A DNA stretch of 44,797 nt from a virus (lineage: Duplodnaviria > Heunggongvirae > Uroviricota > Caudoviricetes), in the IMG/VR virus record IMGVR_UViG_2568526230_000010; one strand, 5' to 3'. The first letter of the stretch is position 1. Every line of letters begins with the position of its first letter. Under the pieces are notes generated by a model. The model did no database searches, was not told the origin of the DNA, and saw only the letters and a list, made by a program, of their open reading frames with translations. The position numbers and the translations under genes were made by a program. Of this stretch, positions 1,162 through 43,084 are shown piece by piece.

Positions 1162-1260
1162 AATCATTCCCACTCAATTATTTACGGACACCATAACTAA
1201 TTGAGTGATAACATTTTTCCAAAGATGAATTTTTCTCGTACCGTTTTATATACCGTCACC
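1162..1260. other. Candidate att core and P' arm (start of attL/attP identity)
   Basis: First bases shared by the left junction and the inter-copy junction; contains 10-bp inverted repeat CACTCAATTA (1171-1180) / TAATTGAGTG (1198-1207) and the 11-mer ATACCGTCACC (1250-1260) that recurs in the opposite arm at 40954-40964. Confidence 0.35.
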
Positions 1261-1288
1261 GGAAATCAGTACCATGAAAAATGCCATG

Positions 1289-1771
1289 CTATCTGGTCAG
1301 TGTGTCGTACTGTTTTTCGCAGACTCTTCCGGCTTCGGCTGCCCGGTCAGCATACTCTGCCAGTTGTCTGTTTCTCTCGAGAGATTTGCTGAGCACGTCG
1401 GCAAGCAAAACTCCGGTGTCTGCGGCTGACGTCCCAGCGCCGACAATGGCGTTATACTGCCTGAGCTGCTCACGGATGGCAAAGAGTTGTTGCTGCAACC
1501 TGCCAGCGCGAGCGGCAGCATCAAGAGCATCGCTGCGCGCCTGCTCGATCCTCTGCTGCGCTTCACGTTCATTGGTCGCTTTCTCCTGTTCGTAGTGCTG
1601 ACGAACTTTTTCTTCTTCGGCTTTGCGGTCTTCTTTCGCCTGCGCATACCCGGCGTCGTACTGACGACTGCCGTGTGCATTCCAGGCTACAACTCCTGAT
1701 ATGACCAGAACAGCAAGCATCGCCATGATAACCAACTGTTTCCAGTATGCTTTTACGAATGCCCAGATCAT
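1289..1771 (-). CDS. Rz-like inner-membrane spanin
   Basis: 160 aa; N-terminal TM helix then Q/E/R/A-rich coiled coil; last gene of the lysis cassette, overlaps the endolysin stop by 4 nt. Confidence 0.75.
1297..1530 (-). CDS. Rz1-like outer-membrane lipoprotein spanin, embedded in Rz in the +1 frame
   Basis: Internal start gives [12 protein letters not shown]… with lipobox LAGC and a Pro/Ser-rich 77-aa product lying entirely inside the Rz ORF, as in lambda Rz/Rz1. Confidence 0.6.
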   Translation of the reverse strand: MLLMLPLALAGCSNNSLPSVSSSGSITPLSALGRQPQTPEFCLPTCSANLSRETDNWQSMLTGQPKPEESAKNSTTH

Positions 1772-2397
1772 ACCGCTAGCGCCTTACTGGCAGTGATGTA
1801 CCGAGCGCGCCGGTCGTCGATGCCGTTCCTGCCACCATTGATAATCAGAGTTACACGTGCAATATCGCCGGTATACTTCATGCAGCCTTTGCTGGAGAAA
1901 AACCACGCCGCGCTACGAGCTGCATATTCGTCCTGCGCCAGCAGTTCAGGATTCTCCAGCAGGTCCACTTTCAGGCCGTTTCCGCAGTCACGATAGTTAT
2001 TCAAACCGGTAATCTGGATAAGTCCGCGCCCACGGTAATTCCATCCATCGCCTGGGGCATTGTTACCCATGCGTTTGCTGTACACCAGATTTGCGATCGC
2101 GCGCTGGCGCTCGAGTTGCAATGGTGGTTCACCAGCACGGCGACCCAGTGCGTTGGCCTGTCCCTGAGTGAGACGTCCTGCCCGAACAAAGTTAGCCAGT
2201 CCTGTGACACTGTAGTTGAAATTCTCCTGCAACCTGGTGAAGCCACCAGACTCATGCCCGACTTGAGCAATAAACATTGCCTGATCTTCTGCTTTGCTGA
2301 TACCAAACTCTTTCATTGCAGAAGTTATATGCGAGAACCAGCGTGCGGCCAGCGCCTCGCTAATACCAGCAGCTCGCTGGAATTGTTTAATCTCCAT
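1768..2397 (-). CDS. Endolysin, glycoside hydrolase family 19 (chitinase-like lysozyme)
   Basis: 209 aa; motifs [12 protein letters not shown] and [12 protein letters not shown] typical of GH19 phage endolysins; sits between holin-like genes and Rz. Confidence 0.8.
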
Positions 2398-2695
2398 GTT
2401 TAGACCTCGTTATCTTGAAAATCTGAACGACGTTACCGCGAGTTTTAAGAACCGCAGCAAGCATGACAGCGTTGATAATGACCTCAGATAAATCCACAGC
2501 CATTGGCGTGCGTAACCAGATTGCATAGGCGACTCGAACAGGAATACTGGCCGCAGCAACAATCAGGAAATAAGCAAGCCATCCTCCCCACCTTCGATGT
2601 TGAGAGCCGTTACGCCGGAATGTGACAACGCGAATTGCTATGCCAGTGCAAATAACTGCATTGGTGATAAGCAAAAAAAACTCATGCGTTACCAT
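2387..2695 (-). CDS. Holin-like small membrane protein
   Basis: 102 aa with hydrophobic TM segments and a charged C-terminus; overlaps the endolysin start. Confidence 0.5.
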
Positions 2696-3086
2696 CGTCT
2701 TTTCTCCCCGGAATTAACTCGCGTGGATTATCGGAACGGTGATAGAGCCATATACCAATACGCACAGCGACAATTGCTGACACAAATGCGCCTGCAGAGA
2801 AAACAATCCCTTTTTCAAAAGAGTCCTGCGTGATGGTAGGGATCAGGCTGGCTATGCCGATAAGAATTGATGCTGCTGGTTTGTAAAAGAGAAGGCCGCA
2901 AAGAAAGCTGAGCATCGACAGGAGCACCCGGCGACGGATGGGGTACTCTACTGCAGAGGTAACAAAAATTACCGCCCCAGCCAAAGCCCCTAAAGCAACC
3001 TCCGGAGGGACACCTGCAATAACCGCAGCAAGAGAACTAACACTAAGCCACTGATTTGAAGTTTCATTGGTTAGTTGGAATGACAT
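2682..3086 (-). CDS. Holin/antiholin-like multi-TM membrane protein
   Basis: 134 aa, three to four hydrophobic helices; first gene of the lysis cassette, downstream of the tailspike. Confidence 0.5.
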   Translation of the reverse strand: MSFQLTNETSNQWLSVSSLAAVIAGVPPEVALGALAGAVIFVTSAVEYPIRRRVLLSMLSFLCGLLFYKPAASILIGIASLIPTITQDSFEKGIVFSAGAFVSAIVAVRIGIWLYHRSDNPRELIPGRKDDGNA

Positions 3087-3158
3087 AACGAAACCCGTTT
3101 ATTTGCAAACACCCTGCTTCAGGAAAAGTATACCGCGCAACAACACACCATTTACGGT

Positions 3159-5621
3159 TCAATTCCCTGTTAATTGCAAAACTTGCTCTTCCAGCTTTTT
3201 AACCCTGCGTCTCATCATCGCAGATTCCAGAATCAGAGCCTCTTCATAACGGATACCGTAACATTCACCAGCCTCGACGGCTTCGCGTACCAGAACCTTT
3301 GTCTGTATAAGTGGGTAAACTCCTGCAGAATGCTCTTCTTCCGTCACATCCCTGTATTCTGCCGGGGTCTCATTCCACTTGTCATAACAGATAAATGCCA
3401 GTCGTGACACATCTATGCCTTCATTCTGAAATACACTGATAACATGCTGCGCAACTGCACCAAAGTGCCATCTTGCTCCGTCTTTACCTTTCACTTCGAT
3501 CCTGTCAAGGTACTGGTATGAAACCCATTCCACTCTTTCCCATGCGTCCAGTATTTTCTCATCAATAACCTCTGGAGCAGTCTTGAAACGCGCATCGGAC
3601 AGCACCGTAAACGCTGACTGGGTAAATCCCCCCGACCATGCACGACCAGCCAACCCAAGAGAATAAGTATTCGTTGTCGATGGTGTCATGGCTGAATCAG
3701 AAAACTGTATATATTCTGAATTTCCAGTAGATATTCGAATATTTCCATTTATTAGCGACATAGTGCCTTTAGTATTATCACTATTGAATAATTTCAATTG
3801 CGAACTTATACCGCCTCCCACAGCCAGAGATACATCGCCTTCAGCAAGCATTCTGAATTTATCTGCAGAAACAAGCGTCTGGTTAGCAAGGTTAAAATAT
3901 TTAACCCACCATTCAAAACGCCCTGACATAGTCCCAACGTACTGACCAAGCGCAGGGACGTGAACAACATTGCTATTTGTAGTGCCGTCTATACTGGAAA
4001 TACCAGTCACCGCTGATGCAGAACTCAGAATATTATTTCTGTCACCAGGATGTTTAATTTCAACAAAGTTCCTGATACACCCTTCCTCGAAGGTAACCAC
4101 GCCGGAAGAACTATACATGGGGAATATTGACGCATAATTACTGCGTGCAGCATCTAAGAAACGAATGGTTGTAGATGTCTGCAGATCTCCTGATTCATTT
4201 TTCCCATCACACCCAGTCATTAGAATATTACTGGCAATATTATTATTTCCCTGAACGGTGACGCCGTGCGCCTGCTTTGCGTCCGATTCAGAGTAATCAA
4301 CCAGCACATCCGAAATCAGGTTACCAGTCCCCTTGCCAACAACTACTGCGGCGTATTTTGGGTTGTTAGCCATTACACTGCTAATGATATTATTCGTTGG
4401 GGCAGTTTCCGTCTCAGTTCCATTGTAAACAACGTGCTGACACTCTTCACCAATAACATTGCTGACAATGTTATATTTTGCTGCTGTTTTAAGTTCCACT
4501 GCACCAAACTGAGGATAATTTCTGGCTATCACACCATCAATTAGCGTATTTTGCGATGAATCAAAAAGCACACAACCTGCTTTTTTATTATTTGCGAACC
4601 CTAAATACTCTCCTCTTATATCTCTAACAATGTAACCTGACGGAATACCATTATTCGGATAAGCGATCAAGCTAAATCCTGTTCCTCGCGTATTTGTAAA
4701 TCTGATATTTTTAACCGATACATCATGGCCACCTGAAAATGACACCTGGTGTCCCTGCACACTATCATCTGATTTATTTCCCATAATTGTTAGCGTACTA
4801 AGCATGCCACCATCGGGCATGTTAAAAACCAGATGATTACCATCTCTGTCATACTGTTTTATCGTTCCCCCACCTGTTCCGTACAAGCCACAACGTGAAA
4901 GAGAAACTAAAGATGTATTGAATACCCCTTCCGGAACAAAAACACTGCTAAACGAATGTAATGATTTTGTAAAAGCATCCTTGTTATCATTTAAGATTCC
5001 ATTTTGAGCTCCAAAATCCTTAATGCTGACACCATCACGCATCTTATCCTGGAACGTTCTGTATACCGCTCCAGAACCATACTGAATAAACCAACCAAAA
5101 CCACCAATAACTCCGGCGATTGCAGCATCGACATAATTACGCATTGAGCGATTATTTACAGCGTCCTGCTCAAGTGATGGATCGGCAAGGTTAGATATTC
5201 TGTTTTGCTTTGCATCGTAATATTTTGCAAGCAAAGATGGTTTCATCAATGCACGTCTGAACAACCCAAAACATCGCTGGATCAGCATCGTCAGGTAGTC
5301 AAATGCATCCTCATGAACTTCGGGGAAAAATTTTCCCTGATTGCGAAGATCAGTCTCCTGCACCACATCAAGCACACGCTCTATCGTGATTCGCCAGCCA
5401 GCAGCAAGCGGCGACGGAAGAACCACTGCACCGCCACTATAAGTTCCCGCCCCTGTTACCGTATAACCAGCATCCAGCACTAGTTTTGTAACGTTACCGT
5501 TAAGGTCAGACACCTGAACAACCAGGTCGGATTTTTTGAAAATACGGAAGGTATACGGAAATGATGTCGTAACGCCGTTACCTGTGTATTCGTTGTGGTC
5601 AACTTCGGTTGAGACCGTCAT
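3159..5621 (-). CDS. Tailspike with beta-helix and C-terminal intramolecular chaperone (S74-type autoproteolytic) domain
   Basis: 820 aa; conserved podovirus particle-binding N-terminus; long Gly/Asn/Ser/Thr-rich repetitive middle; C-terminal 150 aa ending in a coiled coil resembles endosialidase-type chaperone domains. Confidence 0.8.
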   Translation of the reverse strand: MTVSTEVDHNEYTGNGVTTSFPYTFRIFKKSDLVVQVSDLNGNVTKLVLDAGYTVTGAGTYSGGAVVLPSPLAAGWRITIERVLDVVQETDLRNQGKFFPEVHEDAFDYLTMLIQRCFGLFRRALMKPSLLAKYYDAKQNRISNLADPSLEQDAVNNRSMRNYVDAAIAGVIGGFGWFIQYGSGAVYRTFQDKMRDGVSIKDFGAQNGILNDNKDAFTKSLHSFSSVFVPEGVFNTSLVSLSRCGLYGTGGGTIKQYDRDGNHLVFNMPDGGMLSTLTIMGNKSDDSVQGHQVSFSGGHDVSVKNIRFTNTRGTGFSLIAYPNNGIPSGYIVRDIRGEYLGFANNKKAGCVLFDSSQNTLIDGVIARNYPQFGAVELKTAAKYNIVSNVIGEECQHVVYNGTETETAPTNNIISSVMANNPKYAAVVVGKGTGNLISDVLVDYSESDAKQAHGVTVQGNNNIASNILMTGCDGKNESGDLQTSTTIRFLDAARSNYASIFPMYSSSGVVTFEEGCIRNFVEIKHPGDRNNILSSASAVTGISSIDGTTNSNVVHVPALGQYVGTMSGRFEWWVKYFNLANQTLVSADKFRMLAEGDVSLAVGGGISSQLKLFNSDNTKGTMSLINGNIRISTGNSEYIQFSDSAMTPSTTNTYSLGLAGRAWSGGFTQSAFTVLSDARFKTAPEVIDEKILDAWERVEWVSYQYLDRIEVKGKDGARWHFGAVAQHVISVFQNEGIDVSRLAFICYDKWNETPAEYRDVTEEEHSAGVYPLIQTKVLVREAVEAGECYGIRYEEALILESAMMRRRVKKLEEQVLQLTGN

Positions 5622-6896: not shown

Positions 6897-7608
6897 TATA
6901 GCTATTGATAAGTTGCCGATAACAACTCATTGCAACATCCCTGTAATGACTACAGAAATGCTTGCTGATTTGTATGACACAGAACCCAAACTGATTCGTC
7001 AAAACTATCAACGAAATGCAGATCGATTCATTGAGGGAAAACATTGTTTCAAGCTGATAGGCGAAGAATTACGAGCATTTAAGAACGAGTCCTCTCAAAG
7101 AGGTTTGCTTAATATTGCACCAAAAGTAAGTCATCTTTTCTTATGGACCGCTCGCGGTGCAGCACGACATGCGAAAATTCTTGAGACTGAAAAAGCGTGG
7201 GAGGTCTTCGAAAAACTGGAAGATTGCTACTTCGACAGAAAACCCGCAAATGTCAGTGGAGATGTTCGTCTCTCAGGTGGAGCTGATTTATCAAAGGCCA
7301 CTCAGGTAATTGAAAAATTCATGCCCGCCATTATGGAGGCGATCAAGCTGGAAGACAAAAAAGAATACAGTGCCCCACTGAAGCCCGGCTACCGCAGCCT
7401 GATTCATTCTCCGTCTGGTGTTCTCGGCCTGACGGAGAACTCACTGCTGATGAATCTGCTGAACCAGTTACAGGAAGACGGGCACGACGTATCGGGCGCG
7501 GCGGCGGAGCTGACCACCATGTTCTGCTACATCGTCGGTGTGAGCAAATGCCTGCGTGATATCCAGACCCACGCGGAGTACATCAACGACAAGGCAGGGT
7601 TCTTCTGA
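6889..7608 (+). CDS. Antirepressor-like protein with N-terminal ORF6N-type DNA-binding domain
   Basis: N-terminus fits the ORF6N pattern (VMTTEMLADLYDTEPKLIRQNYQRNADRFIEGKHCFKLIGEEL); C-terminal domain is a paralog of the 5818..6075 product. Start placed at the ATG 8 nt after GGAGG; the ORF track starts at 6874. Confidence 0.65.
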   Translation: MRNIAIDKLPITTHCNIPVMTTEMLADLYDTEPKLIRQNYQRNADRFIEGKHCFKLIGEELRAFKNESSQRGLLNIAPKVSHLFLWTARGAARHAKILETEKAWEVFEKLEDCYFDRKPANVSGDVRLSGGADLSKATQVIEKFMPAIMEAIKLEDKKEYSAPLKPGYRSLIHSPSGVLGLTENSLLMNLLNQLQEDGHDVSGAAAELTTMFCYIVGVSKCLRDIQTHAEYINDKAGFF

Positions 7609-7680
7609 CGGGCGGCGGCACATGGATGTGCCTTTAAATAATTCTGTACAGATTGCAGACTGTGGGTGAATAGCGTACTA

Positions 7681-7695
7681 TTACCTCAAGGGTAA
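7681..7695. promoter_or_regulatory. Operator-like palindrome TTACCTCAAGGGTAA
   Basis: Family member with one mismatch, between the antirepressor-like stop and the toxin module; followed by hairpin ACGGATT/AATCCGT. Confidence 0.4.
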
Positions 7696-7755
7696 ACGGA
7701 TTGGTTTCATTTTTATTAATCCGTGTAATGAACTTATGAGATATGAGGTAATGTC

Positions 7756-7935
7756 ATGCGAAACGAAAAATTGCAGATGCGTAGAGCGCAAGCTGCCGCA
7801 AGACGTTCTTTCAATGGAAGCGTAGAGTACGTAAAAGTTACTATGACAAAAGATCACGCAAGTCGCGTATCCCGCGCTTTCTTTGATTCTCGTAACAATA
7901 AGGAAAATTATGAGTTCGTCTGCGTCGCAGAATGA
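7756..7935 (+). CDS. Small basic protein, candidate antitoxin or regulator partner of the YafO-like toxin
   Basis: 59 aa, below the ORF-track cutoff; RBS GAGGT 6 nt upstream; Arg/Lys-rich; its 3' end overlaps the toxin start by 26 nt. No Phd/YefM/YafN-like signature recognised. Confidence 0.35.
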   Translation: MRNEKLQMRRAQAAARRSFNGSVEYVKVTMTKDHASRVSRAFFDSRNNKENYEFVCVAE

Positions 7936-8455
7936 TAAAAATCAAATTGTCAGATATAAGGGTCGAGTGTTGCATACGCAAAATTTCTCGGCCCTTTGTG
8001 CATCTGATCTTGAGCTGAAGAAAGTATCTGATGCCTTTACCCAGTATTGGAAAACGGGATACCATCCATCTCTTGGTAAAGATGCTGCATTTGCTCGTCC
8101 GACAGAAATGCTTAAACTAAATGTCAGGCATACTCATGTCGATAACCAAGACTATATTCCAGAAGATAGTGATAAAAAACACACTGGTAAAAAATCATCT
8201 TGGGATGCATGGAAAAATATAGCGTCTGTACAAGTAAAATGCATACCAACAAGTGATTGCTTTTTAGTTTATTCGGTAAATCACAATCGTGATGCGCTGG
8301 TTATGTTTTTTGTTGACGCAGATGCTCACAACATAACTGAGCAAGAAGAGTTTAAAGAGGAAGCAATCACTATCAGTTATCAATTCTTTGAGAAAACAAA
8401 AACAGAACCAATGCCTTTAGAAGAAGATCTTTTTTCTGATAAATGGAAGGAATAG
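7910..8455 (+). CDS. YafO-family toxin homolog (ribosome-dependent mRNA interferase family) with C-terminal extension
   Basis: Aligns by eye with E. coli YafO as recalled: FTQYWKTGYHPSLGKDAAFARP vs FISYKRDGVLPDIFGRDALYD, LNVRHTHV vs ERVAHIHL, CFLVYSV…ALVMFFV vs AHLVYCQ…AWLLIAI. Start at the ATG with RBS AAGGA; AT-rich; followed by a terminator. Confidence 0.65.
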   Translation: MSSSASQNDKNQIVRYKGRVLHTQNFSALCASDLELKKVSDAFTQYWKTGYHPSLGKDAAFARPTEMLKLNVRHTHVDNQDYIPEDSDKKHTGKKSSWDAWKNIASVQVKCIPTSDCFLVYSVNHNRDALVMFFVDADAHNITEQEEFKEEAITISYQFFEKTKTEPMPLEEDLFSDKWKE

Positions 8456-8475
8456 CCCGCAGCGCGGGCTTTTTT
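8455..8475 (+). terminator. Rho-independent terminator
   Basis: GCCCGC-AGC-GCGGGC followed by T6, at the stop of the toxin gene. Confidence 0.7.
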
Positions 8476-8547
8476 GTGGACGAAACACAAGTCAGTGCTA
8501 CACTCATTGACGCCACATTGAGGTGGCTTATAGATGGAAATTTCACA

Positions 8548-8709
8548 ATGAAAAAAGCATTTGCTGCACTGTTCGTTTTGTTGTCTCTGGTAGCTTCAAC
8601 TCAGGCCTTTGCCGGTCGTTGTCAGCACGACAGCGACACTGCTGCTGACGGCTCCCGCTGCGGTGGGCGTTCTGCGGATTCCCGCCCGGGCGGCGGTGGC
8701 ATTCGTTAA
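8548..8709 (+). CDS. Small exported peptide (signal peptide plus about 31-aa Cys/Gly/Arg-rich mature part)
   Basis: MKKAFAALFVLLSLVASTQAFA signal peptide; possible promoter TTGACG-N16-TATAGA upstream; GC-rich, so real coding is uncertain. Confidence 0.35.
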   Translation: MKKAFAALFVLLSLVASTQAFAGRCQHDSDTAADGSRCGGRSADSRPGGGGIR

Positions 8710-8731
8710 AAACAAGGCCGCGAAAGCGGCC
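8706..8731 (-). terminator. Terminator closing the minus-strand late operon
   Basis: GGCCGC-GAAA-GCGGCC (GNRA loop) followed on the minus strand by TTGTTTTT, 15 nt after the stop of the 8746..9306 gene. Confidence 0.6.
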
Positions 8732-8745
8732 TGTGACATGTCACA

Positions 8746-9306
8746 CTACATTGATATATGATTCATAAAGTAGCTTAAAGATTTACTTCCCAGAAAAGAA
8801 ATTTCTTTTCCTGGATATGTCGCAATAATTGAGCATGACTTATCCCCGTTAGAGGTAACAAATCCTGAATAACCTACTTGTTCTTTACCATTTTGTTGCT
8901 TGGCTAAAAAGTAGAGGTAGCTTATCTTTTTGCCCTCTGGGTAAAACTCTGCCAAACCAGTATCGGTGATTGAATATTTTATTCTCCCGCCTTGAGTAAC
9001 GTTTTCCATCTCAAGTTTAGCTATGTCTTTTCTGTTGTATTCAGCATTGATTTTCCTTTCGAAATCAATGTTGTTTTCAAATGAGTAGGAAGCAACAGTC
9101 TGAATAGATGGGAACACGTTTATCTGGATGCCTCCACAGTCGGCACAGGTATAAAGGTATGAATCAGATGGAATCCCCATAAAAGAAAACTGAGTTACCT
9201 TAAATTTATCGCTATCTCCAAAGTATTGAAGTTCGCATTTAACATTTTGCCCTGCAAAAGAAAATGCAGACATCAATATTGAAACAAAAAATATAATTGC
9301 CTTCAT
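8746..9306 (-). CDS. Exported protein of unknown function, AT-rich moron at the end of the late operon
   Basis: 186 aa; signal peptide MKAIIFFVSILMSAFSFA; markedly lower GC than the upstream ejection-protein gene; start 3 nt after the preceding stop. Confidence 0.6.
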   Translation of the reverse strand: MKAIIFFVSILMSAFSFAGQNVKCELQYFGDSDKFKVTQFSFMGIPSDSYLYTCADCGGIQINVFPSIQTVASYSFENNIDFERKINAEYNRKDIAKLEMENVTQGGRIKYSITDTGLAEFYPEGKKISYLYFLAKQQNGKEQVGYSGFVTSNGDKSCSIIATYPGKEISFLGSKSLSYFMNHISM

Positions 9307-9308
9307 TA

Positions 9309-11861
9309 TTATTTACCTAGCATGAACTGCGATGGTGGGATCAGAAAGTCGTTCCCCTGCTCACGCTCAACACGGCGCTGATAACGCTCAAGAGAGCCTG
9401 GGTCAAGGGCATCTTGTATCCGGTTCAATATTAAACCATTCATCGCCGTACGAAGCCAGAACACGTTGAGGAATGGCGTATTGTCAAGTGCCGTGCGATA
9501 CCAGTCACCCAAATCTGCATCCCCTCTCGTGGTCTGCTGGAGCAGCGTGATAATGCTGTCAGCGTTCGATGCTGCTGGCCCCATTAGCGACGTAACCGGC
9601 CCGGCCCCCATGCGGTTGACCTCACCAAACATGAAGTCACCCAAGATGCCAAGACCGCCCCCCTGAGATGCGGCTGCGAGAAACGTCTTGGCATCTGCCG
9701 GGCGTGGTGTTTGCCCTTTCAGCATGAGTTTTGACTGCATGGAGATATAACCAAACATAGTCGCCCAGACAAAGAGGTTTGCAGCACCAAGGAAAGCCCC
9801 CTTCCCGTTACGTAGCAGCGCATTCGTCAGCGATCCGGTTTTCGACTCACCAAGCCCAGCAGGAATATAACCACGCCCGAATACTTCGCGTCCTAGTACG
9901 TTCTGCATGAAGCTTGCAGTGAACGATTTGTACTGACCAGCGAATCGTATTGCTTCCCCAGCCACCGTTCCTGGCACCGTGCCCATCTTCATAAACGCCT
10001 GCGTGCGATCGCCAGGCTCTGACATGGCGATATTCAGGCGGTCAAGGATGTAGCCGCGCAACTGCCCTTCCAATTGATCGCGTGCGTCAGCGATAGCGCG
10101 CTGCGTTGGTTTGATCCCCTTACTCTCTACATAACCGGCAATCACTTCGTCAGGCACGCCGCGGATGCCGCTGGTCGTCATGAACTTACGACCTTCGCTA
10201 TCGGCCATGTCCATGTTGCGAAAAATTTCCCACTCACGTTCGCCAATACCGTGCAGATCCAGCACGCGTCGCAGGTCTTCCGGTAGCCGCGCATGAGACT
10301 GGTCAGCATTCTTTGCAAGCCAGTTGGTTATCATCATGGCGTTGCTGTTGCGACCGCTCTCGGTCCAGAAGTTCATGAGGTTGTACTTAAAGAAAAGCTG
10401 CTGCGCGCGACCAAGCTTTCCATTCAGCGTGTCATCACCAGATATGCGCCGGATGATTTCCTGCGTCATGGAGTCGGAATAAACTCCGATAGAGGAAAGG
10501 ATCTCTTTCTGCTCCGCGCTGTTGTAACGCGTGAAGCGGCCTCTCATAGCACCAAGCAACGCCTGCATAAAATTCTGCCCTTGGTAGCGCATCTCGGTAG
10601 CGGCGATAGGCACGTCGTTAAACGATGAGATTACCGCGCCACCAAGTTGGCTCATACGCAACCAGCCGCGTACAGCCGCCGACGCATTGGCCCAGCCTAC
10701 GCTGCCAGGAATATTTAGCGAGCCGTCAACCTGCGGCATTACGGTACGGTTAATGCGACGCACCTTCGTCATGTAGTCAGCCAACGCTGCCGGTCTTCCG
10801 GATTTGCTGATATCTTCAGCAATGGCGTCCGTCAGGTACTTAAACATGTTCTGTGGGTTAGTGCCCAGTACGCGCATCATGCCCGTTGTGCGGGCAGCGC
10901 TGTTTAAGCCACCAAACAGCGCTTCTCGCAGGCTGCCGGTGCCGAATTGCTGGTTGTACTCGTGCCACGAGATACCATCTTTGAAGTGCAAAATTCGCTC
11001 TTGGCTGGCGCGTTTAGCTGCGTTCGCCGATCCCTTAAAGCCATTCATCCAATCGGGCTTTTCAGATGTAAGATGCACGCCGGAAGCCAGCCCGTTATAA
11101 ATGTTACGCATGAACTGCTCGCGGTCAGCCACGCCGTCAAAAGTGCGCTCATCAAGGCGCGGGAGAATAGCATTTCGCCATGCTTCATAACCTGCGGCGC
11201 GGATCTTCATGATGTCGTGTGACTGGCGCACTATATAGCCCGGCTCTTTGCGTATCCATGCCCCGGCGCGGTTCTCATCAATGCGCGCAGTTTCCTGCCA
11301 TTTCATGATGATTTGTGCAGCGCTTACGGATTGCTTTGTCATACCGTCAGTTGACTGCCCGCGCCCTATGCGCCACATTGCATCGGCAATTTCCCGGTCA
11401 TTGCTGCCGCTGGCGATGAATTGCACCAGCCCGGCACGGTCAAAATCGTAGTTGATACCGGAATGATACTTGCCGCGCAGTTGCGCCACCTCCGAAGATA
11501 CCGACCGGCGGGCGCCGGTACGCGCATCGTTGCGGCCAACCAGCATTGCTTCAAGCCCGATATCCGGGCGGTCTTTCCAGATAGTACGAAGCTCTCTAAG
11601 TCGTTGTGCGGCAATACGGGCGTTGATTGCCTTATTGCGAGCCTCAATCTGTTTTGCCAGCATATCGGCATTGCTCAGTTCTTCCGCTGCGCGCATCGCG
11701 GCCTCTTCCAGAGACAGCGCCTCATTGGTCGCCAGAATTCGCCTAGTGGTGTCGTTCATGTCACGCACCAGCGACTCCATCTCATCGGAAGAAAGCTCGC
11801 GACCAGCGGCAGCATTTACACTGCGCTCGCACTGCGTCAAAAATTCGTTTGCTGCCATCAC
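9309..11861 (-). CDS. Large internal virion/ejection protein
   Basis: 850 aa; start overlaps the upstream stop by 4 nt; part of the coupled block of large proteins typical of podovirus ejection proteins. Confidence 0.6.
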   Translation of the reverse strand: MMAANEFLTQCERSVNAAAGRELSSDEMESLVRDMNDTTRRILATNEALSLEEAAMRAAEELSNADMLAKQIEARNKAINARIAAQRLRELRTIWKDRPDIGLEAMLVGRNDARTGARRSVSSEVAQLRGKYHSGINYDFDRAGLVQFIASGSNDREIADAMWRIGRGQSTDGMTKQSVSAAQIIMKWQETARIDENRAGAWIRKEPGYIVRQSHDIMKIRAAGYEAWRNAILPRLDERTFDGVADREQFMRNIYNGLASGVHLTSEKPDWMNGFKGSANAAKRASQERILHFKDGISWHEYNQQFGTGSLREALFGGLNSAARTTGMMRVLGTNPQNMFKYLTDAIAEDISKSGRPAALADYMTKVRRINRTVMPQVDGSLNIPGSVGWANASAAVRGWLRMSQLGGAVISSFNDVPIAATEMRYQGQNFMQALLGAMRGRFTRYNSAEQKEILSSIGVYSDSMTQEIIRRISGDDTLNGKLGRAQQLFFKYNLMNFWTESGRNSNAMMITNWLAKNADQSHARLPEDLRRVLDLHGIGEREWEIFRNMDMADSEGRKFMTTSGIRGVPDEVIAGYVESKGIKPTQRAIADARDQLEGQLRGYILDRLNIAMSEPGDRTQAFMKMGTVPGTVAGEAIRFAGQYKSFTASFMQNVLGREVFGRGYIPAGLGESKTGSLTNALLRNGKGAFLGAANLFVWATMFGYISMQSKLMLKGQTPRPADAKTFLAAASQGGGLGILGDFMFGEVNRMGAGPVTSLMGPAASNADSIITLLQQTTRGDADLGDWYRTALDNTPFLNVFWLRTAMNGLILNRIQDALDPGSLERYQRRVEREQGNDFLIPPSQFMLGK

Positions 11862-13556: not shown

Positions 13557-16178
13557 TTATCGTCCTGATTGCTGGCCGTTCTGGAAAATGTTAATCAGGT
13601 TGTCGCGCTGACTTTCTGCGCTGTATTCCTTAGACTGTCCGGGAGTATATTTCACCGGAGTATCAATGAACTTGGTAATGCTGTTCCATACTGATCGGTT
13701 GGTTGTTCCCAGTTTCGCCAGATCGTTGAACGGCACCGTAATCGGGTTGCCGTCGGCACCGTTGACGATCAGCCCGTTGAGCATCAGGGTAAGTCCTGTT
13801 TCGTCGCTGTTGGTAACCCACTGCGCATTATCACGAATGCGGGAGATACTCTGCTCACGGTTGACCTCATCAGGTAGCCTTGGGTCACCAATAAGCGGCA
13901 TAATCTGATCTGCTGACAGGTTTTTCAGATACGCATTGGCACCATCGTTAACGTCACGAATATCTATCCCTGCACGCTTAGGTAGCCGCCAAGTGCCATT
14001 GGTCTGGTACTGCTCGCCGAGGATGTCCTGATACGCCTGTTTTGCTGCATCAGACGCCGACATTCCGCGCTGCATGTTGATGTAAGTAAGTCGTTTTCCC
14101 TGCTCGTTGAAGTTATTCCACACGGCAGTGCCACCAGGCTGAACAACCATCGTGCCAGCAAAATCTTTCGATTGGTCATTCCATGACGAGTCGGCGCTAT
14201 CCGCGTCGGTTTTCTCAAGACTGCCGCGTAAGTCAGCAGTTTTAACGCTACGGTTTTGCCAGAGCGCATTTGCCGCGCGCGGGTTCTCGGTAGCCATGAC
14301 AACCTGCAACGCAGGATAAGCGCTCTTCTGAACCTGCTGCATCACCTGATCCGAGTATTTGCCGAACGACTGCGCCACCGACTGAATGGCCTTTACGCTA
14401 GATTCCTGCGTGTTGTCAATACGCTGCAGTACGTCGTTGACCATGGACTCCGGTAAAACTTTTTTGCTCATTATCCCCAGGCGGTCTTTTTCAGACTGTA
14501 TGCGGGAAACTAGGTATTCACCAGATGAAGGGTCATTCAGGTACTGCTGGAATGCAGCCTGCACAACCGGAGAGTTTTGTTGCAGCCATGCCCCCGGATC
14601 CGCTTCCCGCGCCTTCAGTACCTGCCCAAGCTTGACCTTTGCCGATGCATAAAGCTCTGCTTTGTATTTAAAGTCAGGGTCGTTTTCCTGCGGTGCCATT
14701 GCCTGCACGGCGGCGGTACCCTGCTGGACGTTGCCCTGCATAATGGTCTGATAAACAGGTTGTAGCGTCATTGCCTGCTGGTATTGCTGGAAGGTTTTTT
14801 CCATCTGCAGGCGCTCGGCAGGCGCTGCCTGAAGCGGCATAACGGCGGCCCATTCGTGCGCTGAAATAGGCGTCACCTGCTTACCGGCCTCAATTTTGGA
14901 TAGGTCGTCCTGCATTCGACTCTGTAGCGCAACGCGACCGGCTGAAGCCTGCATGTCGTACATGCCAGCAACCTTGCTCATCATCTGCGACTTTTTGTCC
15001 GGACTCATGGCGTTCCAGAATGGCTGTGCGATGAGGTTTTCCATCGTCGCAGATCCAGGAATAGCTCCAGCACTGCCAGTTACTTTTGCCACATAATTGC
15101 GCGTCTCGTCGTATGGGATAGCTGCGGCAAACTGGGCGTTACTGACTTCGCCTGTGCGCGGATCGCCAATCTGTTTAATCCAGCCGTCAACCTTTCCTGG
15201 GCCAGCGTTATAGGCAGCTACTGCCAGAACCGGGTTATTGTCGTATTTCTTCATCTGCGCGCCGAAATAAGCTTGCCCCAAGCGGGCATTATAGCGCGGG
15301 TCATTCAACCATTTATCTCGGTCCCACGGCACGCCAGCAAGGCGGGCAGCTTCGGGGCCAGTATCTTCCGTCACCTGCGCTACGCCAACAGCGCCTTTTG
15401 GCGACACCAGAGGTGTTCCGTCCTTTCCGTACTGATTTCCGCCACTCTCCTGCCAGATTATTGCAGAGAATAACTGCGCCTCACTCGGTGTATCGGTTAC
15501 CTCAATCTTGCCGTTCGGACCCATCATCTGTTGATACATCGGCACATACCACGCCTCCGCCGCACCGTTCGCGGCATTCTCGCGCCACGAAACCCAGTTC
15601 TGTTCGATCTCTTCCTGACTCTGGCCGTGGGCTTCGCCGTAAGCGATGATGCTATGATATGCCTTCAATCCTGCCTGGTTTGCCATTGTCGGGTTACGGA
15701 ACTGCATCGATAGGTTTTTTAGTGTCGCATCCTGCATATCCGCCTCATACTGGCGAACCTGTCCTATTTCGTACCTCCCGGCCTGCGTAGTGAACTGAAT
15801 GCGCTGCTGCTGCGCCTGCTGCATGAAAGCATTACGAGCCTGTTCATCCGGCAGCGACATAGCCAGTTGTTCGACCTGAGCATCAAACTGCTGCGTATAC
15901 TCATGGCCTTTTCCAATAGCATTTTTCCCTTTCAGGTTAAGCAATCCTGTTTCAGGATTATTCAGCAGATCGCTGCTTATCTGACTGAGGTTAAGAGATG
16001 CCTCCTGAGCCAGAGCGATATTGGCACGCTGTTTTGCCTGCCCCAAAACATCAATTGCCTCTGTCCCTGCCCGAACAAAAGCATCACCAATACCTGGCTG
16101 AGAAAACGTCTGCAAACCTGCTGACTGAACTCCACGACTCTCAACCTGACGTCCGGATACTGTTGGTACGACTGGCAT
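13557..16178 (-). CDS. Internal virion protein with lytic transglycosylase (SLT) domain
   Basis: Motif AIIWQESGGNQYG…AVGVAQV…AAYNAGPGKV is a soluble lytic transglycosylase signature. Start set at the ATG preceded by GGAGG, overlapping the upstream stop by 1 nt; the ORF track extends to 16253. Confidence 0.7.
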   Translation of the reverse strand: MPVVPTVSGRQVESRGVQSAGLQTFSQPGIGDAFVRAGTEAIDVLGQAKQRANIALAQEASLNLSQISSDLLNNPETGLLNLKGKNAIGKGHEYTQQFDAQVEQLAMSLPDEQARNAFMQQAQQQRIQFTTQAGRYEIGQVRQYEADMQDATLKNLSMQFRNPTMANQAGLKAYHSIIAYGEAHGQSQEEIEQNWVSWRENAANGAAEAWYVPMYQQMMGPNGKIEVTDTPSEAQLFSAIIWQESGGNQYGKDGTPLVSPKGAVGVAQVTEDTGPEAARLAGVPWDRDKWLNDPRYNARLGQAYFGAQMKKYDNNPVLAVAAYNAGPGKVDGWIKQIGDPRTGEVSNAQFAAAIPYDETRNYVAKVTGSAGAIPGSATMENLIAQPFWNAMSPDKKSQMMSKVAGMYDMQASAGRVALQSRMQDDLSKIEAGKQVTPISAHEWAAVMPLQAAPAERLQMEKTFQQYQQAMTLQPVYQTIMQGNVQQGTAAVQAMAPQENDPDFKYKAELYASAKVKLGQVLKAREADPGAWLQQNSPVVQAAFQQYLNDPSSGEYLVSRIQSEKDRLGIMSKKVLPESMVNDVLQRIDNTQESSVKAIQSVAQSFGKYSDQVMQQVQKSAYPALQVVMATENPRAANALWQNRSVKTADLRGSLEKTDADSADSSWNDQSKDFAGTMVVQPGGTAVWNNFNEQGKRLTYINMQRGMSASDAAKQAYQDILGEQYQTNGTWRLPKRAGIDIRDVNDGANAYLKNLSADQIMPLIGDPRLPDEVNREQSISRIRDNAQWVTNSDETGLTLMLNGLIVNGADGNPITVPFNDLAKLGTTNRSVWNSITKFIDTPVKYTPGQSKEYSAESQRDNLINIFQNGQQSGR

Positions 16179-16723
16179 TATAATCCTCCGGGTAATCTGG
16201 TTCCTGCCGCTGCCCCGATTGGCGCAGGAGTGCTTTGAGTAAACGGACTCCACGTCCCACCAAACATCTGGTACGCACCGTATGCCTTCAGAGGCGCGGT
16301 GAGCAATGTTGTTGCTGCTCCCACATTCCCCTGTTTACGGGCTGAACTGGCTTCTGCTTTATAGTTGGCAGCCTGAACCTGATAACCGTAAGCCTCGCGT
16401 TGCGCGTTATTCACCGTCGTCAGCGAATCAAGAGCGCCAAACTGGGCAGTGTCGCCAAATATATCCAGCGCGTTACCTGTAGATAAATCAGCGCCGGTAG
16501 CCCCCATTGTCGCCGCCTGTGTACCAAGCCGCTGTCGGGTCTCTCTGCGCCGTTTCTCAGCTTCAGCGTTACCTCTGTTTATTGCATCATTTGCCTGAGC
16601 TGTGGCTATATCTGCGTTCGCTTCTGCAACCTTCGAGGCATACTTTCCCTGTTGGTACTGGGTGTATGCCTGAATGCCACTCATGGCGAGCATTGCGCCA
16701 CCAGCAATAACCGGATCGCACAT
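16178..16723 (-). CDS. Internal virion protein
   Basis: 181 aa, Ala/Gly/Thr-rich; coupled to neighbours by 1-nt overlaps. Confidence 0.55.
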   Translation of the reverse strand: MCDPVIAGGAMLAMSGIQAYTQYQQGKYASKVAEANADIATAQANDAINRGNAEAEKRRRETRQRLGTQAATMGATGADLSTGNALDIFGDTAQFGALDSLTTVNNAQREAYGYQVQAANYKAEASSARKQGNVGAATTLLTAPLKAYGAYQMFGGTWSPFTQSTPAPIGAAAGTRLPGGL

Positions 16724-22857: not shown

Positions 22858-23150
22858 TCCTGTTCACTGGCCTCTTTGGCCATCTTCAAATACTGTTCAG
22901 GGCAATGCGCCATAACGCGCTGAAACAGTTCCAGCGCCAGATTGCGTTGCCCCTCATTAAATGCCATTGCCATAGCATCCATCGGAGAGATAGCGGAAAA
23001 CACCCGGCCTTTCTCCAGCACCGACCAGACAACGCGACGCCCCTGTTCACTGCTCATGACAAAGCGAATGTCATCAATTTCACGCTGTGCCATGTCACGT
23101 TGCTTACGGGCGTTTTCTTCTTTCAGTTGATCGTCTTCGTAATCTGTCAT
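22854..23150 (-). CDS. Hypothetical small protein between portal and scaffold
   Basis: 98 aa; 4-nt overlaps with both neighbours. Confidence 0.5.
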   Translation of the reverse strand: MTDYEDDQLKEENARKQRDMAQREIDDIRFVMSSEQGRRVVWSVLEKGRVFSAISPMDAMAMAFNEGQRNLALELFQRVMAHCPEQYLKMAKEASEQE

Positions 23151-28265: not shown

Positions 28266-28383
28266 AACCACCGTGGTAATAGTTACCGTTGTGGTAATAG
28301 TATCATGCAAAATAAAGCCGCCATAGTTGGCGGCAGTATTCAAACCCCATCAAATTCATCATGCATAATCTACTCGTGACATG

Positions 28384-28725
28384 TCACACTATTAATTTCG
28401 TTTCATGCCAGCCTTTAGTCACCCAGCATTGCGAGTCACCATCACACGGGCATGAATTCACAGGAACTCTCTCGCCGCACTTACCGCAACGTTTTCTGCT
28501 GATCGATTTTATACGCCCGTGCACGCGTGCATCATCCTGGCGGATCAGTAACGCTATATACTCACCAAATTCGTAAGGCGCACGCCCGGGGCGACGCGTG
28601 GCACAGTTACGCTCCAGCATTTCAATTTCCTGAGCATCAAGCACAATTTCCAGCTTACGCACACCAGATGCAGCTTGTCTGGCTCTCTGAGCGGCTTTGC
28701 GCTCTGCTGCTGATTTAGCCATCAA
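28384..28725 (-). CDS. Hypothetical protein with C-terminal zinc ribbon, upstream of terminase
   Basis: 113 aa; basic helical N-terminus; C-terminal CGKCG…CPC cysteine cluster. Confidence 0.5.
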   Translation of the reverse strand: MMAKSAAERKAAQRARQAASGVRKLEIVLDAQEIEMLERNCATRRPGRAPYEFGEYIALLIRQDDARVHGRIKSISRKRCGKCGERVPVNSCPCDGDSQCWVTKGWHETKLIV

Positions 28726-41087: not shown

Positions 41088-41214
41088 AATCATTCCCACT
41101 CAATTATTTACGGACACCATAACTAATTGAGTGATAACATTTTTCCAAAGATGAATTTTTCTCGTACCGTTTTATATACCGTCACCGGAAATCAGTACCA
41201 TGAAAAATGCCATG

Positions 41215-41697
41215 CTATCTGGTCAGTGTGTCGTACTGTTTTTCGCAGACTCTTCCGGCTTCGGCTGCCCGGTCAGCATACTCTGCCAGTTGTCTGTTTC
41301 TCTCGAGAGATTTGCTGAGCACGTCGGCAAGCAAAACTCCGGTGTCTGCGGCTGACGTCCCAGCGCCGACAATGGCGTTATACTGCCTGAGCTGCTCACG
41401 GATGGCAAAGAGTTGTTGCTGCAACCTGCCAGCGCGAGCGGCAGCATCAAGAGCATCGCTGCGCGCCTGCTCGATCCTCTGCTGCGCTTCACGTTCATTG
41501 GTCGCTTTCTCCTGTTCGTAGTGCTGACGAACTTTTTCTTCTTCGGCTTTGCGGTCTTCTTTCGCCTGCGCATACCCGGCGTCGTACTGACGACTGCCGT
41601 GTGCATTCCAGGCTACAACTCCTGATATGACCAGAACAGCAAGCATCGCCATGATAACCAACTGTTTCCAGTATGCTTTTACGAATGCCCAGATCAT
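41215..41697 (-). CDS. Rz-like spanin (copy 2)
   Basis: Protein identical to the 1289..1771 product. Confidence 0.75.
41223..41456 (-). CDS. Embedded Rz1-like lipoprotein spanin (copy 2)
   Basis: Identical to the 1297..1530 ORF. Confidence 0.55.
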   Translation of the reverse strand: MLLMLPLALAGCSNNSLPSVSSSGSITPLSALGRQPQTPEFCLPTCSANLSRETDNWQSMLTGQPKPEESAKNSTTH

Positions 41698-42323
41698 ACC
41701 GCTAGCGCCTTACTGGCAGTGATGTACCGAGCGCGCCGGTCGTCGATGCCGTTCCTGCCACCATTGATAATCAGAGTTACACGTGCAATATCGCCGGTAT
41801 ACTTCATGCAGCCTTTGCTGGAGAAAAACCACGCCGCGCTACGAGCTGCATATTCGTCCTGCGCCAGCAGTTCAGGATTCTCCAGCAGGTCCACTTTCAG
41901 GCCGTTTCCGCAGTCACGATAGTTATTCAAACCGGTAATCTGGATAAGTCCGCGCCCACGGTAATTCCATCCATCGCCTGGGGCATTGTTACCCATGCGT
42001 TTGCTGTACACCAGATTTGCGATCGCGCGCTGGCGCTCGAGTTGCAATGGTGGTTCACCAGCACGGCGACCCAGTGCGTTGGCCTGTCCCTGAGTGAGAC
42101 GTCCTGCCCGAACAAAGTTAGCCAGTCCTGTGACACTGTAGTTGAAATTCTCCTGCAACCTGGTGAAGCCACCAGACTCATGCCCGACTTGAGCAATAAA
42201 CATTGCCTGATCTTCTGCTTTGCTGATACCAAACTCTTTCATTGCAGAAGTTATATGCGAGAACCAGCGTGCGGCCAGCGCCTCGCTAATACCAGCAGCT
42301 CGCTGGAATTGTTTAATCTCCAT
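41694..42323 (-). CDS. GH19 endolysin (copy 2)
   Basis: Protein identical to the 1768..2397 product. Confidence 0.8.
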
Positions 42324-42621
42324 GTTTAGACCTCGTTATCTTGAAAATCTGAACGACGTTACCGCGAGTTTTAAGAACCGCAGCAAGCATGACAGCGTTG
42401 ATAATGACCTCAGATAAATCCACAGCCATTGGCGTGCGTAACCAGATTGCATAGGCGACTCGAACAGGAATACTGGCCGCAGCAACAATCAGGAAATAAG
42501 CAAGCCATCCTCCCCACCTTCGATGTTGAGAGCCGTTACGCCGGAATGTGACAACGCGAATTGCTATGCCAGTGCAAATAACTGCATTGGTGATAAGCAA
42601 AAAAAACTCATGCGTTACCAT
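42313..42621 (-). CDS. Holin-like membrane protein (copy 2)
   Basis: Identical to 2387..2695. Confidence 0.5.
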
Positions 42622-43012
42622 CGTCTTTTCTCCCCGGAATTAACTCGCGTGGATTATCGGAACGGTGATAGAGCCATATACCAATACGCACAGCGACAAT
42701 TGCTGACACAAATGCGCCTGCAGAGAAAACAATCCCTTTTTCAAAAGAGTCCTGCGTGATGGTAGGGATCAGGCTGGCTATGCCGATAAGAATTGATGCT
42801 GCTGGTTTGTAAAAGAGAAGGCCGCAAAGAAAGCTGAGCATCGACAGGAGCACCCGGCGACGGATGGGGTACTCTACTGCAGAGGTAACAAAAATTACCG
42901 CCCCAGCCAAAGCCCCTAAAGCAACCTCCGGAGGGACACCTGCAATAACCGCAGCAAGAGAACTAACACTAAGCCACTGATTTGAAGTTTCATTGGTTAG
43001 TTGGAATGACAT
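42608..43012 (-). CDS. Holin/antiholin-like membrane protein (copy 2)
   Basis: Identical to 2682..3086. Confidence 0.5.
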   Translation of the reverse strand: MSFQLTNETSNQWLSVSSLAAVIAGVPPEVALGALAGAVIFVTSAVEYPIRRRVLLSMLSFLCGLLFYKPAASILIGIASLIPTITQDSFEKGIVFSAGAFVSAIVAVRIGIWLYHRSDNPRELIPGRKDDGNA

Positions 43013-43084
43013 AACGAAACCCGTTTATTTGCAAACACCCTGCTTCAGGAAAAGTATACCGCGCAACAACACACCATTTACGGT

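Follow-up and report, generated by a model that had tools for sequence, protein, structure and literature searches.

What do two small exported proteins, encoded by converging genes at positions 8548 to 9306 of the IMG/VR virus record IMGVR_UViG_2568526230_000010, contribute to the phage or the lysogen that carries them? The record (44,797 nucleotides (nt), Caudoviricetes; termed the window below) is a stretch of the E. coli chromosome with a Uetakevirus-like (phiV10/epsilon15/TL-2011b) prophage, and the two open reading frames (ORFs), designated ORF-A and ORF-B, lie at the distal end of the late operon. Both very probably encode real exported accessory proteins. ORF-A occupies a slot in which related phages carry unrelated envelope-targeted cargo, and we tentatively regard it as an envelope immunity or superinfection-exclusion factor. 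ORF-B forms a transcription unit of its own and belongs to a peptide family found also outside phages. The genes and signal peptides concerned are the following:

9309..11861, minus strand: last internal-virion (ejection-type) protein gene, 849-850 amino acids (aa), phrog_684 'virion structural protein'; ORF and PHROG match
8746..9306, minus strand: ORF-A, 186-aa precursor, phrog_11983, RefSeq WP_000643933.1 'hypothetical protein'; ORF call
9253..9306, minus strand: predicted signal peptide of ORF-A, residues 1-18, with predicted signal peptidase I (SPase I) cleavage at SFA-G (after Ala18, before G19); n/h/c layout kept in the family and -3/-1 rule
8548..8709, plus strand: ORF-B, 53-aa precursor, phrog_14503, named 'transmembrane anchored protein' by the Prokaryotic Genome Annotation Pipeline (PGAP); ORF and conservation
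8548..8613, plus strand: predicted signal peptide of ORF-B, residues 1-22, with cleavage at AFA-G (before G23); hydrophobicity and AxA rule in most of 26 homologues

Both ORFs are present where the initial annotation, made from the DNA letters alone, had placed them, and its description of ORF-A as an AT-rich 186-aa gene appended directly to the last ejection-type gene was accurate: the GC content is 35.5% compared with 55.2% for the 850-aa gene immediately upstream, and the ATG lies 2 nt past the stop codon of that gene (TAA-TA-ATG). An intrinsic terminator is located on the 3' side. Homologues of ORF-A form 17 clusters with 66-92% identity in Salmonella, Cronobacter, Citrobacter, Enterobacter, Klebsiella, and Hafnia, and an exhaustive profile search among 1.84 billion representatives found just eight clusters of the family, down to 29% identity. 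Four cysteines (C24, C54, C57, and C158) are invariant, C54 and C57 forming a CxxC pair. The differences between ORF-A and its Salmonella homologue fall predominantly in codon position 3 (33, with 7 in position 1 and 4 in position 2), and the codons of the ORF-B core differ by 363 synonymous versus 82 non-synonymous changes. Judged by these substitution patterns, ORF-A and ORF-B are genuine genes under purifying selection; the dominance of third-position and synonymous changes and the confident fold of mature ORF-A set them apart from chance ORFs. Frameshifted fragments of ORF-A also exist (P0017 and P0079). The most distant homologue (P0080, 29% identity; locus L012, SRR10692002_176019) lies behind a SymE-toxin gene and not behind one for an ejection protein, and the family is therefore not strictly bound to one position.

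The N-terminus of ORF-A, MKAIIFFVSILMSAFSFA followed by G, carries a single basic residue and a hydrophobic stretch about 13 residues long, with small side chains at positions -3 and -1 (layout MK-AIIFFVSILMSAF-SFA before G). Of the 19 members of the family, about 17 show this pattern, and the sequence itself is variable. The signal peptide of ORF-B, MKKAFAALFVLLSLVASTQAFA followed by G, has the layout MKK-AFAALFVLLSLVAS-TQAFA before G. Both products are thus predicted to be secreted by Sec and processed by SPase I, a pattern kept across 19 homologues of ORF-A and 26 of ORF-B, which agrees with the signal peptides and envelope export proposed earlier. A lipobox ([LVI][ASTVI][GAS]C) is found in neither protein, and neither has a cysteine at the lipobox position.

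Searches of Pfam, NCBIfam, and PADLOC gave no significant match for ORF-A or ORF-B, which leaves the unannotated phrog_11983 as the sole sequence-library family of ORF-A. Weak NCBIfam matches to NlpE and HxsA3 cover signal peptides or short strings only and were rejected, and the family model of the NlpE N-terminal domain, a lipocalin-like barrel with a CXXC motif, does not fit ORF-A. A tblastn search of ORF-A against 50,697 phage records gave no match, though the prophage-built PHROG family matches. Literature searches on the RefSeq accessions of both genes and on superinfection by phiV10 and epsilon15 yielded nothing about these genes.

The position of ORF-A is best understood by comparison with related phages. 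A survey with the C-terminus of the 850-aa protein fetched 66 IMG/VR loci, in 64 of which the next gene was readable. This gene mostly starts 0-4 nt past the stop codon of the 850-aa gene, with three outliers from -11 to +16, and at least ten unrelated families occupy the slot in the 64 loci, none of which is empty. All occupants possess a signal peptide, a lipobox, or transmembrane (TM) segments and are predicted envelope proteins. The cargos are distributed as follows:

17 loci: 64-73-aa 2-TM proteins
15-16 loci: ORF-A
15 loci: 123-aa signal-peptide protein
6 loci: 99-aa polytopic protein
3 loci: 51-aa 2-TM protein
3 loci: Rap1a, a type VI secretion system (T6SS) immunity protein, above the Pfam cut-off
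2 loci: 110-113-aa TM protein
1 locus: 160-aa lipoprotein (locus L035, lipobox LFGC)
1 locus: 131-aa membrane protein
1 locus: 108-aa membrane protein

In phiV10 the slot contains a 46-aa 2-TM protein, and every one of the alternative cargos is listed as 'unknown' in PHROG. Homologues of ORF-A follow directly after a gene of about 848 aa in Hafnia, Klebsiella, and Salmonella and in the case of a metagenomic homologue with 34% identity; the Klebsiella homologue also has a terminator at its 3' side. The 850-aa C-termini are 100% identical in phages with ORF-A and phages with the unrelated 123-aa exported protein, and a Klebsiella phage with Rap1a retains 95-100% identity across this C-terminus. 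ORF-A itself diverges faster than its neighbour (66% versus 87% identity in Hafnia and 34% versus 61% in locus L013). The comparison identifies the slot as a swap site for envelope-targeted cargo, exchanged between phages with near-identical flanks, and bears out the initial annotation, which had taken this to be a position for accessory envelope genes. A cognate immunity function of ORF-A, directed against a polymorphic C-terminal toxin of the 850-aa protein, was considered and rejected: phages with Rap1a or the 123-aa cargo keep 95-100% identical C-termini, and cargo swaps at identical C-termini argue against a cognate toxin-immunity pair. In Klebsiella pneumoniae CP089325 (locus L014, 6238-7094), the slot contains two exported proteins in tandem, a 127-aa protein of the Rap1a family followed by a 135-aa Cys-rich signal-peptide protein; the latter belongs to phrog_8691, as does the 160-aa lipoprotein cargo of L035.

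Signal-peptide and structure prediction, which the initial annotation had named as a check, gave the canonical Sec signals described above, read from the sequence pattern, and, for mature ORF-A modelled by AlphaFold with 19 homologues including distant ones, a predicted local distance difference test score (pLDDT) of 89.5 and a predicted template-modelling score of 0.86; the full precursor with its signal peptide, modelled with 14 sequences, reached a pLDDT of 44. The model comprises four helices and a sheet of seven to eight strands arranged as an alpha/beta sandwich, and the mature 168-aa protein is predicted to be a PsbP/Mog1-like sandwich belonging to that fold superfamily. Further down the list of the structural search stand Tsi3 (7.9), DcrB (7.6), TplEi (7.5), and PA3488 (6.5), and Foldseek was concordant. 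The fold relatives thus include an envelope lipoprotein, DcrB, and three T6SS immunity proteins of the periplasm, Tsi3, TplEi, and PA3488. Sequence identity to them is 5-13%, with template-modelling scores of about 0.45-0.55, and at such identity the likeness is a fold assignment, not a proof of homology. A structural search of BFVD gave two marginal matches to phage 'lipoproteins' only, and a sequence-profile search of the PDB gave only insignificant matches, the top one being T5 Llp (8a60_B, E 0.3). Two candidate assignments were discarded. A Lom/Ail/OmpX-type barrel, which would be all-beta with eight strands, an aromatic C-terminal beta-signal, and typically no cysteines, is incompatible with the alpha/beta sandwich, the lack of barrel matches, the four invariant cysteines, the C-terminus ...NHISM, and the lack of a Pfam match, and a Bor-type lipoprotein (Bor/Iss, Llp, Cor) would require the missing lipobox.

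The initial annotation had further assumed that ORF-A is expressed in the lysogen, and here the evidence gave it no backing. The junction between the 850-aa gene and ORF-A leaves no intergenic room for a promoter, and no sigma-70-like site was found on the minus strand in the 300 nt upstream of ORF-A. The possibility that the 3' end of the 850-aa gene conceals a conserved promoter was also considered and rejected: synonymous variation shows no dip in the last 100 nt of that gene, the synonymous diversity of 0.37-0.47 per codon pair being equal further upstream. On the evidence of the sequence, the late operon ends with ORF-A as its last cistron, probably translationally coupled to the 850-aa gene; lysogen expression is by these data neither supported nor excluded. 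Compared with the moron as defined by Hendrix, ORF-A has a terminator, a deviating composition (35.5% versus 55% GC), and replacement polymorphism, and a promoter was not found.

Superinfection exclusion or envelope immunity is our best guess for the function of ORF-A. The reasons are that the slot always contains envelope-targeted proteins from diverse families, that there is a parallel in phage P22, that the predicted fold is shared with immunity proteins, and that Rap1a is an alternative cargo. ORF-A would be exported by Sec and cleaved after Ala18, would fold in the periplasm as a disulfide-stabilised PsbP-like binding module, and would bind and neutralise a component that must act in this compartment. 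The likeliest target would be the ejection apparatus of a related phage entering the cell; in a specific version, ORF-A might inhibit the SLT transglycosylase in a manner resembling that of T4 Spackle. Such an action would have its counterparts in the prevention of entry by Spackle and P22 SieA and in the neutralisation of effectors by T6SS immunity proteins with this fold. If ORF-A and its slot-mates block entry, about ten compact unrelated envelope proteins would be available for comparison in studies of podovirus ejection across the periplasm and of ways to stop it, with relevance to host-range failure of phage therapy in lysogens of E. coli, Klebsiella, and Salmonella.

Several observations weigh against this proposal. 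Without a promoter of its own, ORF-A may be produced only late in lytic growth, which would be a poor fit to exclusion mediated by a prophage. No covariation between cargo and the 850-aa C-terminus was detected, and hence no evidence for a cognate pair. The PsbP/Mog1 fold is generic and occurs also in photosystem II subunits, cytoplasmic chaperones, and lipid-binding proteins. None of the PADLOC models matches ORF-A, and no paper was found for either gene. Finally, ORF-B occurs in non-phage genomes without recurrent neighbours, which argues against a phage-specific role of this peptide.

Among the alternatives, the foremost, which we nevertheless consider unlikely, is that ORF-A is an orphan T6SS immunity protein protecting the lysogen from periplasmic effectors and unrelated to phage entry. 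The modelled fold common to Tsi3, TplEi, and PA3488, the true Rap1a in the same slot of Klebsiella and IMG/VR phages, and the predicted periplasmic location with conserved disulfide cysteines are in favour of it. On the other hand, ORF-A has no sequence similarity to any immunity family and its family is found almost only at this phage position, most slot cargos are small polytopic membrane proteins unlike T6SS immunity proteins, and the role would require expression in the lysogen, for which no promoter was found. Rap1a and a T6SS-immunity-like fold in one slot would tie prophage carriage to inter-bacterial competition. Next in rank, and likewise improbable, is a late periplasmic protein serving the phage's own lytic cycle, either in lysis timing or in protection from lysis-from-without or secondary adsorption, for which T4 RI and Spackle are periplasmic precedents. 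Co-transcription and probable translational coupling with the late structural genes without an own promoter would fit this role, and a slot filled in 64 of 64 readable loci suits a function that every phage needs; the prophage, however, has a complete lysis cassette elsewhere, and a low GC content together with exchange for unrelated families is what one usually sees in accessory cargo.

The idea, suggested in the initial annotation, that ORF-A, ORF-B, or both are conversion virulence factors of the Lom/Bor type, acting in adhesion or serum resistance, appears very unlikely: export is predicted for both proteins, prophages of clinical E. coli isolates carry them, and ORF-B has its own promoter, but ORF-A matches neither the beta-barrel nor the lipoprotein type, homologues of ORF-B occur in soil rhizobia and cyanobacteria, and no similarity to known virulence families was found. 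It is hardly credible that the two ORFs are annotation noise or decaying functionless remnants. The truncated copies of ORF-B in loci L016 and L023 and the frameshifted copies of ORF-A in P0017 and P0079 might suggest decay, but the substitution patterns, which point to purifying selection on both genes, contradict it, as do residues invariant across genera and phyla and the confident fold prediction.

ORF-B converges on ORF-A, its stop codon being located inside the T-run of the late terminator. As the initial annotation had stated, it is a 53-aa gene for a Cys/Gly-rich signal-peptide protein; the mature part comprises 31 aa with two cysteines and eight glycines and is predicted to reside in the periplasm and to form a single disulfide, C25-C38. 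In the alignment the signal peptide varies and the mature core, a 25-residue disulfide core, is near-invariant. PGAP calls the product a 'transmembrane anchored protein', a misleading label as judged from the sequence, because its sole hydrophobic stretch is a cleavable signal peptide of canonical form. A longer version of 77-88 aa was rejected, the upstream extension being unconserved and overlapping the terminator and the promoter, and matches of distant ORF-B homologues to PhrK, EexN, and DcrB were discarded since they cover signal peptides or short strings only. No sequence-profile match was found in the PDB. The core D[TR]A[AS]DGSRCG resembles what we take to be the calcium-binding, disulfide-closed DxDxDGxxCE loop of Excalibur domains, a lead only, as Pfam gave no match to Excalibur at E up to 1. 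In two carriers of ORF-A, L016 and L023 (about 5003-5144), ORF-B is truncated at its 5' end, with loss of the signal peptide and the first cysteine and retention of ...DTAADGSRCGGRSADSRPGGGGIR, which indicates a recombination junction inside the gene.

The elements flanking ORF-B are the following:

8454..8475, plus strand: intrinsic terminator of the YafO-like gene; terminator scan, present also in loci L014, L062, and L087
8496..8504, plus strand: extended -10 element TGcTACACT in the promoter of ORF-B; conservation among 19 divergent upstream regions
8512..8527, plus strand: stem-loop GCCAC-ATTGAG-GTGGC, located where the ORF-B mRNA is predicted to begin; RNAalifold
8706..8732, minus strand: intrinsic terminator of the late operon, hairpin 8715-8732; terminator scan, annotated in phiV10, and conserved in the alignment
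8733..8744, no strand: perfect 12-bp palindrome GTGACATGTCAC between the ORF-A stop codon and the late terminator; present also at 28376-28387

The possible own promoter noted in the initial annotation is supported by a near-invariant -10 sequence, TAnnnT at 8499-8504, in which T8499, A8500, and T8504 are conserved to at least 90% in 19 upstream regions that are otherwise 50% identical. A candidate -35-like sequence, TGGACG at 8477-8482, was assigned by eye. For the stem-loop, RNAalifold analysis of 17 sequences gave four predicted pairs, each with compensatory double changes, and a Shine-Dalgarno sequence is also present. The terminator of the YafO-like gene isolates ORF-B as a separate transcription unit. 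ORF-B has the features of a moron in the sense of Hendrix, with hairpin terminators on both sides, the distal one without a T-run on the plus strand, and a GC content of 58% compared with 37% for its YafO-like neighbour; it was found in only 12 phage records, mostly of Uetakevirus, and a copy is present in an unrelated Pectobacterium phage. ORF-B is thus an autonomous moron, which combines a conserved -10 element with a stem-loop at the 5' side, a Shine-Dalgarno sequence, and an ORF of 53 codons. An Rfam search of positions 7500-9500 found nothing real.

The palindrome GTGACATGTCAC has its second perfect copy just upstream of the first late-operon gene, at 28376-28387, and weaker copies at 23086 and 26110; the perfect copies have the 16-mer GTGACATGTCACACTA in common. 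The chance expectation for a given 12-mer in 44.8 kb is about 0.003, and TL-2011b, phiV10, and a number of IMG/VR loci have retained the palindrome; it might serve as a binding site for a regulator. It is overlapped by a sigma-70-like site on the plus strand (GTGACA-18-TATGAT, 8733-8762, 10 of 12 matches) that is directed antisense into ORF-A. Antisense read-through of ORF-B transcription over the 3' end of ORF-A is conceivable, because the hairpin on the ORF-B side has no T-run on the plus strand.

The ORF-B core, Cx4D[TR]A[AS]DGSRCGxR[SA]xxxRPGG following a signal peptide, was also found outside phages in a set with one genome per species. The same architecture is present in Mesorhizobium, Devosia, Methylobacterium, Rhizobium, Bradyrhizobium, and Agrobacterium as well as in Nostocales, Synechococcales, Bacteriovorax, Vibrio, Rhodoferax, and Polyangiaceae. 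Presented earlier as one of two phage envelope proteins, ORF-B is hence not specific to phages, the same peptide family being spread across diderm bacteria. No gene recurs as a neighbour of ORF-B in the non-phage genomes, so that the search for a conserved partner gene outside Enterobacterales ended without a candidate, and neither a paper with the DGSRCG motif nor a match of ORF-B in Pfam, NCBIfam, or the PDB was found. We infer that ORF-B acts alone, as a stand-alone periplasmic peptide that would bind a ligand common to diderm envelopes. A near-invariant peptide of about 30 residues that extends from enterobacterial phages to rhizobia and cyanobacteria without a family record is likely to have a general function.

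A bolder view is rather improbable at present: the slot after the last ejection gene would be an obligatory site for non-homologous 'entry blockers', and ORF-A and Rap1a would act in the periplasm as inhibitors of the peptidoglycan-cleaving or channel-forming ejection proteins of incoming phages. If true, this would tie T6SS immunity directly, in evolution and in mechanism, to superinfection exclusion by phages. Independently of the slot, ORF-B would be a universal diderm periplasmic micropeptide captured by phages.

With respect to the genomic setting, strain Ecol_AZ162 shows 100% identity to bases 1-21400 of the window, and the prophage there abuts yfgI. An exact direct repeat of 3,710 bp (1162-4871 and 41088-44797, spacing 39,926 bp), which contains the lysis cassette and part of the tail-fibre gene, together with host DNA at bases 1-1161, is the reason why the window seems to hold one whole prophage copy and the beginning of a second tandem copy. 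The late operon is located on the minus strand, from about 28343 down to 8746, and encodes capsid, a Bbp16-type cement protein, a T7 gp14-family core protein, an SLT transglycosylase, a 565-aa protein, and the 849/850-aa protein, after which follow ORF-A, the terminator, ORF-B, a YafO-like gene, an ORF6N antirepressor gene, and a tail-fibre gene. The complete lysis cassette consists of two holin-like genes, a GH19 endolysin gene, and a DUF2514 spanin-like gene. Two further genes are of relevance:

13557-16253: SLT transglycosylase protein gene
7883-8455, plus strand: YafO-family toxin-like gene (Pfam 26.1 bits, cut-off 25; phrog_1651; PGAP start 7910)

The 850-aa ORF opens with GTG-ATG at 11856-11861; because the ATG (MANEF...) is the start in every homologue and in the PGAP annotation, a length of 849 codons (9309-11858) is more likely. 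The classification of its product as an ejection or internal-virion protein, already made in the initial annotation, is a reasonable inference because of the phrog_684 match and the location in one block with the T7 gp14-family core and SLT proteins. The YafO-like gene, next to which no YafN-like antitoxin gene is evident, accompanies ORF-B in TL-2011b and several further loci.

Among known systems, the closest in position is sieA of phage P22, which lies right after ejection gene 16, beside the antirepressor region and upstream of the tailspike gene. SieA is an envelope protein, as is predicted for ORF-A, and both genes have the same neighbourhood, after the last ejection gene and near an antirepressor; sieA is a better positional analogue than lom and bor of lambda, with which the initial annotation had compared ORF-A. 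SieA blocks DNA entry, with escape mutations mapping to gp16 and gp20, and occurs as several mutually unrelated sequence types (PMC10883804). It is a polytopic inner-membrane protein transcribed from its own promoter PsieA within 85 bp upstream, whereas for ORF-A a soluble protein, released into the periplasm by signal-peptide cleavage, is predicted and neither intergenic space nor a promoter was detected; the two show no sequence similarity, and the single cleavable hydrophobic segment of ORF-A places it outside the SieA family. A second parallel concerns T4 Spackle. This small Sec-exported periplasmic protein blocks superinfection by inhibiting the peptidoglycan hydrolase of the virion, and the virion encoded here also contains an internal protein with an SLT domain. 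Spackle, however, is helical, has about 97 aa, and is expressed early, whereas ORF-A is a predicted 168-aa alpha/beta sandwich encoded in the late operon, and the two are not homologous.

With the T6SS immunity proteins Tsi3, TplEi, and PA3488, ORF-A shares the predicted fold only; like Rap1a, they show no sequence similarity to it. ORF-A has no sequence match to a T6SS immunity family, its neighbours are phage structural genes, and there is neither an adjacent effector gene nor a T6SS context. Compared with the wider group of PsbP, Mog1, DUF1795 (Eag, SciW), and DcrB (5-13% identity), the predicted periplasmic ORF-A differs from the cytoplasmic Eag proteins and from the lipoprotein DcrB, and to our knowledge its four-cysteine set with CxxC has no counterpart in these families. 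T5 Llp, a 61-aa lipoprotein, is a phage envelope protein that blocks reinfection; its match to ORF-A (E 0.3, over the signal peptide and 'KCE.Y..D..K.K') is not significant, and it is absent from the structural searches. Lom, Bor, and HK97 gp15 are accessory envelope proteins encoded in or at the end of late clusters with deviating composition, in line with the moron concept, yet Lom is an eight-stranded outer-membrane barrel, Bor a lipoprotein, and HK97 gp15 a membrane protein with its own promoter, and ORF-A appears to be none of these. Prophages with an accessory envelope gene at the end of a structural operon are already known, and ORF-A and ORF-B are new uncharacterised members; added here are the predicted fold of ORF-A and the absence of a promoter for it, the always-filled slot with its many families, the ORF-B transcription unit, and the spread of ORF-B across phyla.

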